In this document: one piece after another, positions 2,773 through 8,484 of the stretch
Layout: every line of letters starts with the position of its first letter
Numbering within the stretch: the stretch's first letter is position 1
The notes under the pieces: model-generated
What the model was told of the DNA's origin: nothing
The model's database searches: none
What the model saw: only the letters and a program-made list of their open reading frames with translations
Translations under genes and position numbers: made by a program
Source: a virus
Strand: one strand, 5' to 3'
DNA length: 27,591 nucleotides
Virus genome (UHGV): UHGV-0217794

Positions 2773-3264
2773 GTGGCAAAAGTTTTTACACAAGAAGAGC
2801 GGGAAAAAATTAAAGGGCAGGTGGTGGAACTCGTGCGCCAGAGCGGTCGTGAGACGTTACGGCAACTGGAAGCTAAAACAGGTGCGACTAGATATCTGAT
2901 GAGCGTTCTTGCCAGAGAGCTGGTAGCCAGTGGCGATGTATACAACTCCGGCTACGGGTTATTCCCGTCTGAACAGGCGCGTAAGGACTGGCAACACGCC
3001 CGCAAAAAACTCTCGAGGGCAAAGGTGAAGAAACCTGCTGTGGTTGATCCGGACCTTATCTGGTCATTACCTGACGGAGAAATACGCCGCTACGACAGTC
3101 GCCTAAACATAATCTGTCGCGAGTGCCGGAAGACTGAAGTTATGCAGCGTATACTCGCATTCTATCAGGGAAATGTTCGATATCTATTGAAGCGACGAGT
3201 AGCGCGCAGGGATAAGAGGGATGGTCCCTTAAAGGGGAGAGCTAATTATCCGGAAGGATTCTGA
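2773..3264 (+). CDS. hypothetical protein, 163 aa (GTG start)
   Basis: ORF with AAGGGGGA RBS upstream of GTG 2773; no recognisable family; sits where a helicase loader (P/DnaC-like) would be in lambda. Confidence 0.55.
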   Translation: MAKVFTQEEREKIKGQVVELVRQSGRETLRQLEAKTGATRYLMSVLARELVASGDVYNSGYGLFPSEQARKDWQHARKKLSRAKVKKPAVVDPDLIWSLPDGEIRRYDSRLNIICRECRKTEVMQRILAFYQGNVRYLLKRRVARRDKRDGPLKGRANYPEGF

Positions 3265-3515
3265 TGATGAACATCGAAGAACTGCGTAAAATTTTTTGTG
3301 AAGATGGCCTCTATGCTGTGTGCGTTGAAAATGGAAATCTTGTTAGTCATTACCGCATTATGTGTTTGCGAAAGAATGGGGCTGCGTTAATTAATTTTGT
3401 GGATGGTCGAGTGACAGACGGATTTATCTTGCGCGAAGGTGAGTTTGTCACTTCATTACAGGCACTGAAAGAGATCGGAATAAAAGCAGGCTTTTCAGCT
3501 TTTGCAGAAGAATAA
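3264..3515 (+). CDS. hypothetical small protein, 83 aa
   Basis: ATG overlaps the upstream stop (TGATG), suggesting translational coupling; no recognisable family. Confidence 0.5.
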   Translation: MMNIEELRKIFCEDGLYAVCVENGNLVSHYRIMCLRKNGAALINFVDGRVTDGFILREGEFVTSLQALKEIGIKAGFSAFAEE

Positions 3516-3581: not shown

Positions 3582-3860
3582 ATGGCACGCAACGTAAAAT
3601 ATTACAATTCTGATAATTCGCCCGTTCTTGCCTGCACGCACGAGCGGTATTCTCACGCATTCAAGTCTGAATGGTTCCAGCACCCTCCATGCACTGAAGA
3701 GCAGGCTGAATGGATAATTCAGTGTTACCGCAGGCGCGGATACGAGGTTAAGAAAGCCCTTAGTCTCGACTACCGTCACTGGATAATCTCAGTCAGATTG
3801 CCTTACTCCGAACGCCCACCGCGTCCGTCCCGTACATTCCAGCAACGCATCTGGAGGTAA
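3582..3860 (+). CDS. hypothetical small protein, 92 aa
   Basis: ATG 3582 with GGAGA RBS 6 nt upstream; no recognisable family. Confidence 0.5.
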   Translation: MARNVKYYNSDNSPVLACTHERYSHAFKSEWFQHPPCTEEQAEWIIQCYRRRGYEVKKALSLDYRHWIISVRLPYSERPPRPSRTFQQRIWR

Positions 3861-3861
3861 C

Positions 3862-4911
3862 GTGCGGGTATTACTTCGACCTGTTCTGGTACCGGAACTC
3901 GGGCTGGTGGTCGTTAAGCCGGGCCGTGAATCCATGCCGGTATTCCACAATACCCGGTTACTGGTGGAGCCGGAACCGAAAAGCATGCGTAATCTGCCGT
4001 CCGGGGTCGTTCCTGCCGCTCGCCAGCCGCTGGTGGAAGACAAAACATTGCTGCCGTTTTTCAGTAACGCACGGGTGATTCGTGCTGCTGGTGGTGCTGG
4101 TGCATTGTCTGACTGGCTGTTGCGCCATATTAAATCCTGCCAGTGGCCACACGGCGATTATCATCACAGCGAAACCGTCATTCACCGTTATGGTACCGGC
4201 GCAATGGTGTTGTGCTGGCACTGCGACAACCAACTGCGTGACCAGACATCCGAATCACTCGAGCAACTTGCTCATCAAAACCTGTCAGCATGGATGATTG
4301 ACGTCATCGGTCACGCAATAAGCGGTACGCAGGAGCGTGAATTATCTCTGGCTGAATTATCCTGGTGGGCGGTCCGCAATCAGGTGGCGGACGCGCTACC
4401 GGAAGCGGTATTACGTCGTTCGCTGGGGTTGCGTGCGGAAAAAATCCGCTCAATGTACCGTGAAAGCGACATCGTACCGGGAGAGCAGACCGCCACCAGC
4501 ATACTGAAACAGCGCACAAAAAATCTTGCACTGTTGCCTCACGCCCACCAGGAACAACACCCACTACAGGAAAAGACGGTGGTAAGCATTGCCGTTGATC
4601 CTGAGTCTCCGGAATCTTTTATGAAACGACCTAAACGTCGCCGCTGGGTTAACGAGAAATACACACGCTGGGTGAAGACACAGCCGTGTGCGTGTTGTGG
4701 TAAGCCAGCCGACGATCCCCATCACCTGATTGGTCATGGTCAGGGCGGAATGGGGACAAAATCTCACGATATTTTCACGCTACCGCTGTGTCGGGAGCAT
4801 CACAACGAGCTTCATGCGGATCCGCTGGCGTTCGAAGAAAAGCATGGTTCTCAGGTTGATTTAATCTTTCGTTTTCTTGATCACGCCTTTGCAACTGGCG
4901 TGCTTGGGTAA
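3862..4911 (+). CDS. DUF968/YdfU-like protein with C-terminal Cys/His (HNH-like) motif, 349 aa
   Basis: C-terminus CACCGKPADDPHHLIGHGQGGMGTKSHDIFTLPLCREHHNELH; same size and position as Qin prophage YdfU (before rusA and Q); GTG start with GGAGG RBS. Confidence 0.65.
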   Translation: MRVLLRPVLVPELGLVVVKPGRESMPVFHNTRLLVEPEPKSMRNLPSGVVPAARQPLVEDKTLLPFFSNARVIRAAGGAGALSDWLLRHIKSCQWPHGDYHHSETVIHRYGTGAMVLCWHCDNQLRDQTSESLEQLAHQNLSAWMIDVIGHAISGTQERELSLAELSWWAVRNQVADALPEAVLRRSLGLRAEKIRSMYRESDIVPGEQTATSILKQRTKNLALLPHAHQEQHPLQEKTVVSIAVDPESPESFMKRPKRRRWVNEKYTRWVKTQPCACCGKPADDPHHLIGHGQGGMGTKSHDIFTLPLCREHHNELHADPLAFEEKHGSQVDLIFRFLDHAFATGVLG

Positions 4912-4923
4912 AAGAGGTGACTG

Positions 4924-5298
4924 ATGCTCATAGATTTGGTTTTACCTTACCCGCCGACGGTGAACACTTACTGGCGACGCCGTGGCAGCACATATTTTAT
5001 CTCGGAGGAGGGAAAGCGTTATCGCCGGGCTGTGGCGCTTATTGTTCGCCAGCAGCGGCTGAAATTAAGCCTGTCCGGAAGGCTGGCGATAAAGGTGATT
5101 GCAGAGCCACCGGATAAGCGTCGTCGCGACCTGGACAATATCCTGAAAGCACCGCTGGATGCGCTGACGCATGCGGGAGTGTTAATGGACGATGAGCAGT
5201 TTGATGAAATCAATATCGTTCGTGGTCAGCCAGTATCTGGTGGACGTCTGGGGGTGAAGATTTACCCCATAATGCATGAAGAGCAGGTCAAAAAATGA
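4924..5298 (+). CDS. rusA: crossover junction endodeoxyribonuclease RusA (Holliday junction resolvase)
   Basis: 124-aa protein starting MLIDLVLPYPPTVNTYWRRRG with conserved acidic residues (RRDLDNILKAPLDAL); AAGAGGTGA RBS; typical position just upstream of Q. Confidence 0.88.
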   Translation: MLIDLVLPYPPTVNTYWRRRGSTYFISEEGKRYRRAVALIVRQQRLKLSLSGRLAIKVIAEPPDKRRRDLDNILKAPLDALTHAGVLMDDEQFDEINIVRGQPVSGGRLGVKIYPIMHEEQVKK

Positions 5299-6116
5299 AA
5301 CTGGAAGATTTACCGAAATACTACTCCCCAAAATCCCCTTGCCTGACCGATGCATCGGCCTCAACGTCAAAAGATGCGCTGAGTATCACTGATGTGATGG
5401 CCGCGCAGGGCATGACACAGAATCGGGCTGAGATGGGGTTTTCTGCGTTCCTGGGGAAAATGGGCATCAGTATGAATGACAGGGCGCGGGCAACAGAATT
5501 ACTGGCAGATTATGCACTCAGTCGGTGCGATCGTGTGGCGGCGTTGAGAAAACTTCCGGCAGAAATAAAACCGGTAGTGATGCGCATTATGGCTTCGTAC
5601 GCTTTTGAGGATTATGCCCGCAGCGCAGCGAGTAAAAAGCAGTGCCCTTGTTGCTATGGGGAAAAATTTATTGAAAGCGTAGTTTTTACAAACAAGGTCC
5701 AGTATCCGGATGGTAAGCCGCCGGTATGGGCAAAGTGTACGAAAGGTGTGTATCCGTCTTACTGGGAAGAATGGAAAAAAGTCAGGGAGGTGGTAAAAGT
5801 TGCCTGTCCGGAGTGTGGCGGAAAGGGTGAGGTTTCCACCGCCTGTAAGGATTGCCGTGGGCGTGGTGTCGCCATTCACCGTGAAGAGTCGGTAAAACGT
5901 GGTATGCCTGTTATCAGAGACTGCCAGCGTTGTGGTGGTCGTGGCTATGAAAGACTACCATCAACGGAGGCATTTAATGCTATATGCGAGGTGACAAACC
6001 AGATAACACGCGCGTCATGGGAAAAAACAGTTAAGAAATTCTATGATGCGCTGGTGACCCGGTTTGATATTGAAGAAGCATGGGCTGAGCGGCAGTTAAA
6101 AAAGGTAACTAGGTAA
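5295..6116 (+). CDS. late-gene antiterminator, Q family (non-lambda type, multiple CxxC zinc motifs)
   Basis: 273-aa protein with CPCC...C and CPECGGKG...CKDCRGRG...CQRCGGRG motifs; ATGA overlap with rusA; directly followed by a promoter-terminator unit and the late region. Confidence 0.8.
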   Translation: MKLEDLPKYYSPKSPCLTDASASTSKDALSITDVMAAQGMTQNRAEMGFSAFLGKMGISMNDRARATELLADYALSRCDRVAALRKLPAEIKPVVMRIMASYAFEDYARSAASKKQCPCCYGEKFIESVVFTNKVQYPDGKPPVWAKCTKGVYPSYWEEWKKVREVVKVACPECGGKGEVSTACKDCRGRGVAIHREESVKRGMPVIRDCQRCGGRGYERLPSTEAFNAICEVTNQITRASWEKTVKKFYDALVTRFDIEEAWAERQLKKVTR

Positions 6117-6160: not shown

Positions 6161-6198
6161 TGGGCTTTTTATGCCTGACGTTAGAAGAGTTTCTACAA

Positions 6199-6220
6199 CC
6201 CGCCGCCGAGCGGGTTTTTT
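6199..6220 (+). terminator. intrinsic terminator (tR'-like): stem CCCGC/GCGGG followed by six T
   Basis: GC-rich hairpin CCCGCcgccgaGCGGG followed by TTTTTTATT, read directly. Confidence 0.6.
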
Positions 6221-6259: not shown

Positions 6260-6335
6260 GGCCCTTTAGCTCAGTGGTGAGAGCGAGCGACTCATAATCG
6301 CCAGGTCGCTGGTTCAAATCCAGCAAGGGCCACCA
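6260..6335 (+). tRNA. ileZ: tRNA with CAU anticodon, most likely tRNA-Ile2 (lysidine-modified, reads AUA; ileX/ileZ-like); elongator tRNA-Met not excluded
   Basis: 76-nt cloverleaf: acceptor GGCCCTT/AAGGGCC, D-arm GCTCAGTGGTGAGAGC, anticodon loop CTCATAA, T-arm GCTGGTTCAAATCCAGC, 3' ACCA; close to my recollection of E. coli ileX. Confidence 0.85.
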
Positions 6336-6435: not shown

Positions 6436-6512
6436 GCGTTGTTAGCTCAGCCGGACAGAGCAATTGCCTTCTAAGCAATCGGTCACTAGTTCGAATCCAG
6501 TACAGCGCGCCA
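6436..6512 (+). tRNA. tRNA-Arg (anticodon UCU, reads AGA/AGG; argN/argO/argU-like)
   Basis: 77-nt cloverleaf: acceptor GCGTTGT/ACAGCGC, D-arm TAGCTCAGCCGGACAGAGC, anticodon loop with TCT, T-loop GTTCGAATCC, 3' GCCA; one mismatch in the T-stem. Confidence 0.8.
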
Positions 6513-6976: not shown

Positions 6977-7450
6977 ATACATATCTGGATTATCACCTGT
7001 TACGGTAAAAAGTTATTGCTTACTGTTTTTGTGAATGGCATTGCAGCAGCCGGATAATGTCAGTGCTGGCTGACGGTGTGCTGGTGGCGGGTGTGGTGGT
7101 TATTGCTTTCCCGTTGCTGAAAAAGAAAACGCCAGACTGTTAGCCGGGTATCAGTTAGCGGGAGAAATTTTTAAATACTTCACAATTCAGGCGGTTGACT
7201 GTTGTCTGGTTTGCGGGGAGTTTGTTAAAAGAAACTGGCATGGTGAATCCCCCTGTGCGGAGGGGCAATCAGCGAGTAGGTATATGGGATAATCGCGTAT
7301 TCAGGTGCTGGTACTGAATTCACCGGGAGGCACCCGGCACCATGCACTTCAATAGATTCTCTCCACATTATGGATATTCTTTCAGAATATCCCACGCAGA
7401 CTTTGTGTAAATGTTAACAAATGTGCGTTTTATTTGATCTGATTCGCTGT

Positions 7451-7509: not shown

Positions 7510-7938
7510 ATGGGTTTTCGTAGCGCATCAATTCTTACGTTGATTATTAGTGGGATTATTATCGGGTGCACTGATGCTGTATCGACAAATTATCATGACC
7601 GTACATCATATTACTCCGATAAAGCAATAGAGACACAGTATGTGAGTTCATCTGAACGTACTTCTGATGTTAGTGAGGATATCCGTCTGTATGCCCATCA
7701 AATCAAGAGCGCCATCGAAAAACAGTTCGGGGATGCGAGTAAGTATTCAGGAAAAGAGTGTACACTGAGAATGCATATGGCCCCGAATGGCCTTCTACTG
7801 GAGGTTAAAAGAGAAAGTGGAGACCTCGATTTATGTCGTGAAGCGATGAATGCGATAAAGAATGCTGATATACCTGCCCCCCCTTCGCCGGAAGTATATA
7901 AAGTATTTCAAAATGGGGTGCTGGATTTTAAACCCTGA
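7510..7938 (+). CDS. lipoprotein with TolA domain-III-like C-terminal domain (142 aa)
   Basis: Signal peptide with lipobox IIGC; C-terminal about 85 aa (YAHQIKSAIEKQFGDASKYSGKECTLRMHMAPNGLLLEVKRESGDLDLCREAMNAIKNADIPAPPSPEVYKVFQNGVLDFKP) aligns residue-by-residue with my recollection of the E. coli TolA C-terminus (YAGQIKSAIESKFYDASSYAGKTCTLRIKLAPDGMLLDIKPEGGDPALCQAALAAAKLAKIPKPPSQAVYEVFKNAPLDFKP). Confidence 0.8.
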   Translation: MGFRSASILTLIISGIIIGCTDAVSTNYHDRTSYYSDKAIETQYVSSSERTSDVSEDIRLYAHQIKSAIEKQFGDASKYSGKECTLRMHMAPNGLLLEVKRESGDLDLCREAMNAIKNADIPAPPSPEVYKVFQNGVLDFKP

Positions 7939-8088: not shown

Positions 8089-8484
8089 GTGGGATTAAAG
8101 AAAATCGTTATGTTGACTTTTTGGGTCGGTTTTGTTGCGGGATGCACACCTTTACACCCTTCAGATTGCCACAAAACTACTGCTACAGGTAGTTGCAGTT
8201 CAGGACGCTGGGATGATCAGGATGAATGGGGGGCGCAAGCGCGGGGAATCAGAGCTGCAATTAATGCCAAACTTGATGAGCCGCATAACTGGAAAGGGAA
8301 AAAATGCAGGTTGCATATGGAATTCTCTCAGGATGGCACGGCGTTAAAAATATCTACCAGTAACGGTGATAAAGCCTATTGCGAAGCGATAAAGTCCGCA
8401 GCTCATAAAGCCAAATTTCCGGCCTTCAACAATCCGGAAGTCTACAGAGATTTTCAGAAATCTGGCTTTGACATGCGAGGTTAG
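8089..8484 (+). CDS. second lipoprotein, divergent paralog of the TolA-III-like lipoprotein (131 aa, GTG start)
   Basis: Signal peptide with lipobox VAGC; C-terminus shares the K-C-L ... G ... GD ... C ... A ... A-FP ... VY ... F ... D pattern with the upstream lipoprotein; GAGGAG RBS 6 nt before GTG. Confidence 0.75.
   Translation: MGLKKIVMLTFWVGFVAGCTPLHPSDCHKTTATGSCSSGRWDDQDEWGAQARGIRAAINAKLDEPHNWKGKKCRLHMEFSQDGTALKISTSNGDKAYCEAIKSAAHKAKFPAFNNPEVYRDFQKSGFDMRG

Follow-up and report, generated by a model that had tools for sequence, protein, structure and literature searches.

A ydfU-type DUF968 gene of an Escherichia coli lambdoid prophage, its predicted His-Me finger domain and its place next to rusA and Q

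The locus described here raises the question of what a DUF968 protein does for a lambdoid phage, and whether it does so in partnership with the Holliday-junction resolvase RusA, whose gene follows closely downstream. It forms part of the virus genome UHGV-0217794, an E. coli lambdoid prophage sequence of 27,591 nucleotides (nt) that was analysed as a whole and is called the window below; all coordinates refer to it. The gene in question, of the ydfU type, was first noticed in a sequence-only reading, which described a protein of 349 amino acids (aa) with Cys/His motifs, compared these with an HNH or zinc-finger signature, and proposed that the protein and RusA form a recombination or DNA-processing pair. 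We find that the gene is an ordinary ydfU ortholog, that the C-terminal part of its product is predicted to fold as a His-Me finger domain, and that a nuclease role in phage replication and recombination is probable by analogy with characterized relatives. The gene and the domain on which this reading is based are as follows.

3853..3857, plus strand: Shine-Dalgarno sequence GGAGG, 4 nt 5' of the ydfU-type GTG, read from the sequence
3862..4911, plus strand: ydfU-type gene of the DUF968 family, 349 aa, GTG start (Pfam DUF968, PHROG 96)
4594..4908, plus strand: predicted C-terminal His-Me finger/HNH domain, aa 245-349 (Pfam DUF968 positions 70-171, BFVD, hhalign)
4687..4815, plus strand: predicted HNH core (conservation, strands and helix of the model, residue match to Gp16)

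The open reading frame (ORF) is present as first described, and every motif quoted for it could be located: CACCGKP at aa 276-282, DDPHH at aa 284-288 and LPLCREHHNELH at aa 307-318. Its homologs begin at the same residue, with MR[VA]LL, in an alignment of 34 sequences. The protein matches Pfam DUF968 (PF06147) with 258.3 bits against a cut-off of 27.8 (E 4.6e-77; aa 160-346, model positions 1-171) and PHROG 96, named "HNH endonuclease", over its full length (E 5e-175), and because of these two matches neither the ORF nor its motifs can be a product of chance. The family is large: 3064 relatives were found among protein cluster representatives at E<=1e-3, and individual clusters hold thousands of members. 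The nearest known counterpart is that of E. coli K-12, where YdfU (b1560, in the cryptic prophage Qin) is 85% identical to the window protein across the whole length, is alike in size (349 aa, 348 aligned) and in motifs, and is likewise encoded upstream of a Q gene of the PF03589 type. DNA at least 80% identical to the window gene was found in 4545 of 5426 complete E. coli genomes, none of which has more than nine copies; copies with up to 99.9% DNA identity are annotated there as 'DUF968 domain-containing protein', and the functional phages Evi, mEp460 and Tritos carry genes 91-93% identical to that of the window. The window gene is, in short, an ordinary ydfU ortholog of an E. coli lambdoid prophage.

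Conservation was examined in the alignment mentioned above, which comprises 34 full-length representatives with 24-82% identity. The same alignment was used to build an AlphaFold2 model with a mean predicted local distance difference test score (pLDDT) of 87 and a predicted template modelling score (pTM) of 0.57, which replaced a single-sequence AlphaFold model that was unusable (pLDDT 42). The model contains the beta-beta-alpha signature of the superfamily, with strands at residues 285-288 and 306-309 and a helix at 311-319, all at pLDDT 94-98. H288, found in 31 of the 34 representatives, lies at the end of the first strand of this predicted module. The catalytic set is further made up of D303 (34/34), H314 (30/34) and H318 (30/34), and the zinc ligands are C276 (34/34), C279 (26/34), C310 (28/34) and position 313, which is Cys in 15 and His in 11 of the representatives. 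The window protein has the full zinc and catalytic sets intact. Judging from these positions, H288 would be the general base, while H314 and H318, aided by D303, would hold the putative catalytic divalent metal. The HNH core is preceded by a conserved basic lead-in, VDPExP..FM.RPK..RW (RPKRRRW in the window), in which P257 and K258 are near-invariant or invariant. The zinc ligands co-vary, in that C279, C310 and the residue at position 313 tend to vanish together: C279 is replaced in eight of the 34 representatives, mostly along with C310 and/or position 313, and all eight keep the catalytic histidines. These eight are therefore zinc-less HNH variants.

Structure comparisons also returned HNH domains. 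The top Foldseek matches in the PDB, weak but all of them HNH domains, were Cas5-HNH (8zp7_B), IscB, Cap5 and ScoMcrA, while BFVD yielded six matches at E<1e-3 (best 2.6e-7), covering only the last ~90 aa, to phage DUF968/HNH proteins of ~90-125 aa, and a Ref-like protein at E 0.08. Sequence and profile searches of the PDB with the DUF968 protein gave no match. On its predicted fold and its conserved residues, the C-terminal ~105 aa is predicted to be a zinc-stabilised His-Me finger and has all the hallmarks of that domain, and the HNH or zinc-finger signature noticed at the outset was borne out by the conserved residues, by the predicted beta-beta-alpha fold and by homology to YbcO, Ref and Gp16.

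This assignment has a history. Jablonska et al. placed DUF968 in the His-Me finger superfamily in 2017, naming YdfU and putting the family together with DUF1364/YbcO (PDB 3g27) in group 7; RusA, Q and antirepressors were given there as typical neighbours (PMC5714182). That classification made the same functional guess as the present analysis. Even earlier, the treble-clef fold of YbcO had led Kaur and Subramanian (2016) to predict that this protein is a nuclease (PMC4999995). The HNH nature of YdfU and its gene neighbourhood are, then, already known, and the nuclease idea raised by the sequence is correct but not new, since the HNH placement of DUF968 was published in 2017.

The relative that lends most substance to a nuclease role is Gp16 of the Staphylococcus aureus phage PhiNM1 (ABF73046). 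This protein is a strong member of the HNHc_6 family (PF16784) and also exceeds the DUF968 threshold (29.1 against 27.8 bits); hhalign aligned it with YdfU at a probability of 94.6% and E 6.4e-8 over 153 columns (YdfU 154-330, Gp16 43-202). The two share the pattern CxxC...H...C-R-E-H-H-x3-H, so that C145/C148, H157, C181-R-E-H184-H185 and H189 of Gp16 correspond to C276/C279, H288, C310-R-E-H313-H314 and H318 of YdfU. Gp16 is also an early gene with rusA in its module, as is the case for enterobacterial ydfU. It differs in its size of 223 aa and in its NinB/Orf-like N-terminus, where YdfU has a different N-terminal region of ~230 aa with a Cys/His site of its own. According to Xu et al. (Nucleic Acids Research, 2026), Gp16 is an early protein that binds double-stranded DNA and nicks, then degrades, plasmid DNA; its C181A mutant is inactive; it binds RecA, through a requirement for its N-terminal domain, and is stimulated by it; it stops host growth in recA+ cells only; and efficient phage DNA replication needs it (PMC12817073). 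The statement that DUF968 has no established function thus holds for YdfU itself but not for the wider family, in which Gp16 was described in 2026 as a RecA-dependent nickase. In PhiNM1, rusA (L165:7706-8113) lies ~3 kb downstream of the Gp16 gene in the same early module, which echoes the enterobacterial association.

Three further proteins can be compared with YdfU. Ref of phage P1 (PDB 3PLW) was aligned by hhalign at a probability of 80.6% and E 1.3e-5 (YdfU 266-328, Ref 86-146) and has, like YdfU, an HNH core with a zinc site and a preceding basic segment. Ref is described as a RecA-dependent HNH nickase acting at D-loops and its N-terminus as a disordered basic tail (PMC4330346), whereas the N-terminus of YdfU is predicted to be folded; the ref gene sits in the P1 immunity region and ydfU in the lambdoid nin region. 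YbcO of the prophage DLP12 (DUF1364, PF07102) is a predicted nuclease of the same His-Me finger group 7 (PMC5714182) and gave an hhalign probability of 83.5% and E 8e-6 over YdfU 274-321, although the Pfam model PF07102 did not match the window protein. With 96 aa it is an HNH module alone, without the N-terminal and middle regions of YdfU, and its first zinc knuckle reads GVCN rather than CxxC; its gene is located directly before rusA in DLP12, in the order ybcO, rusA, ylcG, Q. No published nuclease assay for YbcO was found in the searchable literature. Lambda NinG/Rap belongs to a different family: its Pfam model (PF05766) did not match the window protein, and hhalign gave a probability of 6%, based on CxxC...H only. 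As a nin-region His-Me finger and structure-specific endonuclease acting on recombination intermediates, Rap nevertheless provides a functional analogy to YdfU.

By analogy with Gp16 and Ref, we favour a reading in which YdfU acts as a nuclease in phage replication and recombination, and would give it a probability of about 0.6. Within the early 'nin' region the ydfU-type gene occupies the promoter-distal end, with the replication genes on one side and Q on the other; it apparently shares a transcript with its neighbours, and its translation is probably coupled to theirs. After prophage induction, its product may nick or cut duplex or branched DNA in a reaction that depends on a divalent metal, with recombination or replication intermediates as the probable substrates. 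Host RecA possibly stimulates this activity; such a dependence on RecA is drawn by analogy from the relatives and is held with far less confidence than the picture as a whole. Phage replication and recombination would draw on the nicks or cuts made by YdfU, and the resulting junctions would be resolved by RusA when it is present. The N-terminal zinc module, together with the basic lead-in RPKRRRW, would provide for the binding of DNA or of a partner.

Several observations weigh against this reading. The searchable literature gives no functional study or assay of enterobacterial YdfU. Its similarity to Gp16 and Ref lies mainly within the HNH core of ~60 aa, and the window protein stays below the thresholds of the families to which the relatives point, with 23.3 bits (full length) or 25.1 bits (C-terminal piece) against 26.6 for HNHc_6, and 15.7 against 26.9 for RecA_dep_nuc (PF16786). 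All Foldseek matches in the PDB, obtained with the whole chain as query, were weak (E >=0.46, 74-115 columns). YdfU also lacks the NinB/Orf-like domain that Gp16 requires to bind RecA; hhalign against lambda Orf and YbcN found nothing. Four of the 34 representatives have lost catalytic histidines and yet keep the N-terminal Cys/His site, so that part of the function may be independent of cleavage. Finally, RusA is absent within 4 kb of the gene in 37 of the 160 loci introduced below, 29 of them with complete flanks on either side, and RusA therefore cannot be required.

The region in front of the HNH domain was divided as follows.

3862..4245, plus strand: N-terminal module, aa 1-128, modelled as short strands, helices, and a hairpin plus helix (pLDDT 81-96)
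4138..4230, plus strand: predicted second zinc site formed by C93, H101, C118 and C121 in CQWPHGDYHH...LCWHCDN, aa 93-123
4252..4539, plus strand: helical middle region, aa 131-226, whose second half corresponds to Pfam DUF968 model positions 1-60
4540..4581, plus strand: predicted disordered linker, aa 227-240 (pLDDT <50), variable and gapped in the alignment

The residues most strongly conserved in the family as a whole lie in the N-terminal Cys/His region. Among the 34 representatives, position 93 is Cys in all, position 101 Cys or His in 33, position 118 Cys in all and position 121 His or Cys in all; W119 and D122 are nearly invariant, and the consensus reads CQxxDGxYC...LCWHHDN. In the model a beta-hairpin (105-110/113-118) is followed by a helix (119-125). 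Since the interchange of Cys and His at two of the four positions fits a metal site, this module probably contains a second structural zinc site. Residues 1-135 matched no Pfam family even at E<=10, and nothing in the PDB or BFVD aligned with the protein beyond its HNH part. The N-terminal ~230 aa with its second four-ligand Cys/His site, outside Pfam and solved structures, appears to be previously undescribed. In the middle region, aa 154-226 align weakly with aa 43-105 of PhiNM1 Gp16 in hhalign.

According to Curtis et al. (2014), the "DUF968" proteins of Gram-positive origin combine an Orf-like domain with HNH (PMC4118853), and an Orf/NinB-like domain was therefore a candidate for the N-terminal part of YdfU. 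It was not supported: hhalign against lambda Orf and DLP12 YbcN gave a probability of 0.1%, and lambda Orf (1PC6) was not among the Foldseek matches. As there is no similarity to Orf/NinB or YbcN, the Gram-positive Orf-HNH architecture does not apply to enterobacterial YdfU. The N-terminal and C-terminal modules do have a matching order of elements (helix, Cys knuckle, hairpin, L-C-x-H-H, helix), and hhalign aligned the two collinearly but not significantly (E 0.088, probability 0.65%), which leaves an internal duplication only speculative. One might go further and picture YdfU as a two-module zinc protein, in which the N module would be a degenerate, non-catalytic HNH/treble-clef copy that targets branched or RecA-bound DNA, and the C-terminal HNH a host-factor-stimulated nickase that drives, with RusA, the recombination-dependent replication of lambdoid phages. 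Taken as a whole this elaboration is unlikely, but if true it would make YdfU the Gram-negative equivalent of PhiNM1 Gp16, equipped with another targeting domain.

A number of unusual database entries were considered and set aside. Entries in which the N-terminal part seems to be fused to tail-fibre, portal and other proteins (P0143, P0190, P0193 and others) all join one N-terminal sequence to unrelated phage proteins and look chimeric or misassembled, and the 'N-terminal only' proteins are frameshifted fragments. A DUF968-RusA fusion of 447 aa (P0057) is a singleton deletion product, and a DUF968-Q fusion of 607 aa (P0038), found on four contigs, is a rare deletion or read-through product. 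Two further variants, of 449 and 393 aa (P0001 and P0002), carry internal tandem duplications. The last four, which are singleton or rare clusters, are probably assembly errors or pseudogenes. Fusions and N-terminal fragments were excluded as evidence for domain mobility or for coupling.

We now turn to the relation with RusA, for which the immediate surroundings of the gene and the wider sample of loci have to be considered together. The features that flank the ydfU-type gene in the window are these.

3582..3860, plus strand: ORF of 92 aa, PHROG 1212, function unknown, with its TAA stop at 3858-3860, 1 nt before the DUF968 GTG
4924..5298, plus strand: rusA, Holliday-junction resolvase (Pfam RusA E 2.1e-17, PHROG 34)
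5295..6116, plus strand: Q-type late antiterminator (PF03589), whose start overlaps the rusA stop in ATGA, 5295-5298
6197..6216, plus strand: terminator-like GC-rich hairpin with T-run, after Q

The stop codon of the ydfU-type gene had been thought to overlap the region just before rusA. In fact the TAA lies at 4909-4911 and the ATG of rusA at 4924, with a spacer of 12 nt between them that includes AGAGGTGA; both genes are tightly packed and non-overlapping. On the upstream side, translational coupling of the 92-aa ORF with the ydfU-like gene is likely because the gap from stop to start is a single nucleotide. A search for promoters and terminators inside the DUF968-rusA-Q block gave no signal above shuffled expectation.

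Gene order was then compared across 80 viral contigs, with proteins 86-98% identical to that of the window, and 80 loci taken as one genome per species from many Enterobacterales genera (45-94% identity). The loci were collected with an alignment of 14 sequences, neighbouring ORFs were classified by clustering and Pfam, and flanks of ±4 kb were searched with a RusA profile; 87 loci (the 80 viral ones and 7 from genomes) were counted as close and 73 as divergent. In the 75 usable viral loci of the Escherichia type the order is DUF968-RusA-Q in 64 and DUF968-Q in 11, and in the seven close genome loci it is three and four, respectively. By contrast, RusA follows DUF968 directly in none of the 73 divergent loci, which come from other Enterobacterales; the next gene there is a Q antiterminator of one of four Pfam Q families in 61 and an unassigned protein of 201 aa in 7. 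A RusA gene on the same strand within 4 kb of DUF968 was nevertheless found in 123 of the 160 loci (70/87 close, 53/73 divergent). In the divergent loci it is always upstream: eight have it adjacent and 40 have it within 1.2 kb, as a rule with an antirepressor-like gene between. Immediately upstream of DUF968, a homolog of the 92-aa ORF is present in 84 of the 87 loci of the Escherichia type, but no divergent locus has it there. DUF968 and RusA are thus usually found in one early recombination/replication module in which the order is not fixed; the constant feature is DUF968 as the last gene before Q, and the adjacency of DUF968 and RusA is a lineage-specific gene order. Among the loci sampled, four enterobacterial-type ydfU loci came from assemblies labelled Veillonella parvula, Geobacteraceae, Vagococcus and Actinomycetes (L086, L090, L134 and L141); three of the four are metagenome-assembled genomes, and the labels are probably binning or contamination errors.

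These counts also decide how much of the proposed nuclease-RusA pair can be kept. The membership of both genes in a common module stands, while obligate coupling does not, given RusA next to DUF968 in 64 of 75 loci in Escherichia and in 0 of 73 elsewhere. In its strongest form the pair would be obligate and co-evolving, one enzyme making or targeting a branched intermediate that the other resolves. The short gap in the window and the frequent RusA neighbour in Escherichia favour it, as do YbcO, a short relative placed directly before rusA in DLP12, and the presence of RusA in the Gp16 module of PhiNM1. The gene that comes next, moreover, goes with the C-terminal HNH allele: where this allele is at least 85% identical to that of the window, RusA is next in 64 of 65 Escherichia loci, and where it is 70-85% identical, Q is next in 14 of 14, while the identity of the N-terminal part varies independently. 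There is, however, a mosaic joint inside the gene, at about nt 733-751 (window 4594-4612; aa 245-250, VDPESP), and the matches of many phage records are confined to either nt 1-751 or nt 733-1025 of the gene, so that linkage alone across this intragenic joint would yield the correlation between allele and neighbour. RusA is also absent within 4 kb in 20 of the 73 divergent and 17 of the 87 close loci, the sole DUF968-RusA 'fusion' is the singleton deletion product mentioned above, and in the Qin prophage of K-12, which is defective, ydfU has Q (ydfT) as its next gene, without an intervening rusA. An obligate pair is therefore quite unlikely, and the neighbour statistics advise caution against reading functional coupling from adjacency in mosaic lambdoid early operons.

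Two other explanations shift the emphasis away from phage DNA or from cleavage. By analogy with Gp16, YdfU might be a host-takeover effector that nicks mainly host DNA and arrests host replication or growth after induction. Indeed, overexpression of Gp16 halts the growth of S. aureus and condenses the nucleoid in a RecA-dependent manner (PMC12817073), and P1 Ref raises the lethality of ciprofloxacin (PMC4713147). Yet the gene is retained in the cryptic Qin prophage of K-12, and no PADLOC defence or toxin model matched it. We consider host takeover as the main role very unlikely, and it overlaps with a nuclease role in replication and recombination rather than competing with it outright. A role in a defence system was likewise rejected, since PADLOC models gave no match at E<=0.01.

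The second explanation, which we rate as equally doubtful, would have YdfU as a mainly non-catalytic DNA-binding or regulatory protein, with the N-terminal zinc module as its core, the HNH domain as a DNA clamp and a role in the switch from early to late expression. In 61 to 68 of the 73 divergent loci, across four or five unrelated Q families, Q comes immediately after DUF968, which would suit such a role; the same order is also explained by the conserved lambdoid early operon. The N-terminal ligands are stricter (34/34) than the HNH catalytic residues (30-31/34), with catalytic histidines lost in four representatives, and one DUF968 member has been annotated as a transcriptional regulator (PMC5714182). 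On the other hand, the window protein and ~30 of the 34 representatives have the full catalytic and zinc set, and homologs with the same motifs are proven nucleases. As for a selfish free-standing HNH homing endonuclease, or a terminase helper of the HK97 gp74 type acting in cos cleavage, such roles are frequent for phage HNH domains (PMC12817073) and the mosaic joint within the gene (matches to nt 1-751 or to nt 733-1025) would suit them, but they are hardly credible here, because the gene, far from being sporadic, keeps a stable operonic position in prophages of many Enterobacterales genera (45-56% identity), belongs to an early operon ~7.6 kb upstream of the DUF1441/terminase genes (12003 onward) and not beside a small terminase subunit, and encodes no NUMOD or AP2-type targeting module detectable in the Pfam scan.

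A nuclease that assists phage replication and recombination accordingly remains our preferred reading of YdfU. As a discovery the locus carries little weight, being a routine ydfU ortholog whose HNH nature was published in 2017 and whose neighbourhood had already been described (PMC5714182). YdfU is, all the same, a very common E. coli protein, with ydfU-like DNA in 84% of complete genomes and often in several copies, and the 2026 work on Gp16 supplies it with a concrete, testable hypothesis, that of a RecA-stimulated nickase promoting phage replication. The residual interest lies in that hypothesis and in the strictly conserved N-terminal Cys/His module, an unannotated domain of zinc type that could be defined as a family of its own.

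The remainder of the window has the layout of a lambdoid prophage. Its 5' part comprises a gene on the minus strand for a cI-like helix-turn-helix repressor, a YdaT-like gene, an ORF of 339 aa, a DUF977 gene and two small ORFs; there follow DUF968, RusA, Q, two transfer RNA (tRNA) genes, a small RNA (sRNA) and TolA-like ORFs, and the 3' part holds holin, DUF1327, lysozyme and Rz, then DUF1441, terminase and head genes. The 339-aa ORF (1713-2732, TTG start), preceded by the YdaT-like ORF (1265-1786), occupies the place expected of a replication initiator and has no Pfam match. Of the two small ORFs, the one situated 5' of the 92-aa ORF encodes 83 aa of unknown function (3264-3515). Between Q and the lysis cassette, 3' of the hairpin at 6197-6216, are tRNA-Met (CAT) at 6260-6335 and tRNA-Arg (TCT) at 6436-6512, and the same interval contains an sRNA of the STnc100 family (7209-7399, 108 bits). 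Two adjacent ORFs (7510-7938 and 8089-8484) encode TolA C-terminal domains (Pfam E 2e-23 and 1e-14) and occupy a cargo position in the interval from Q to holin.

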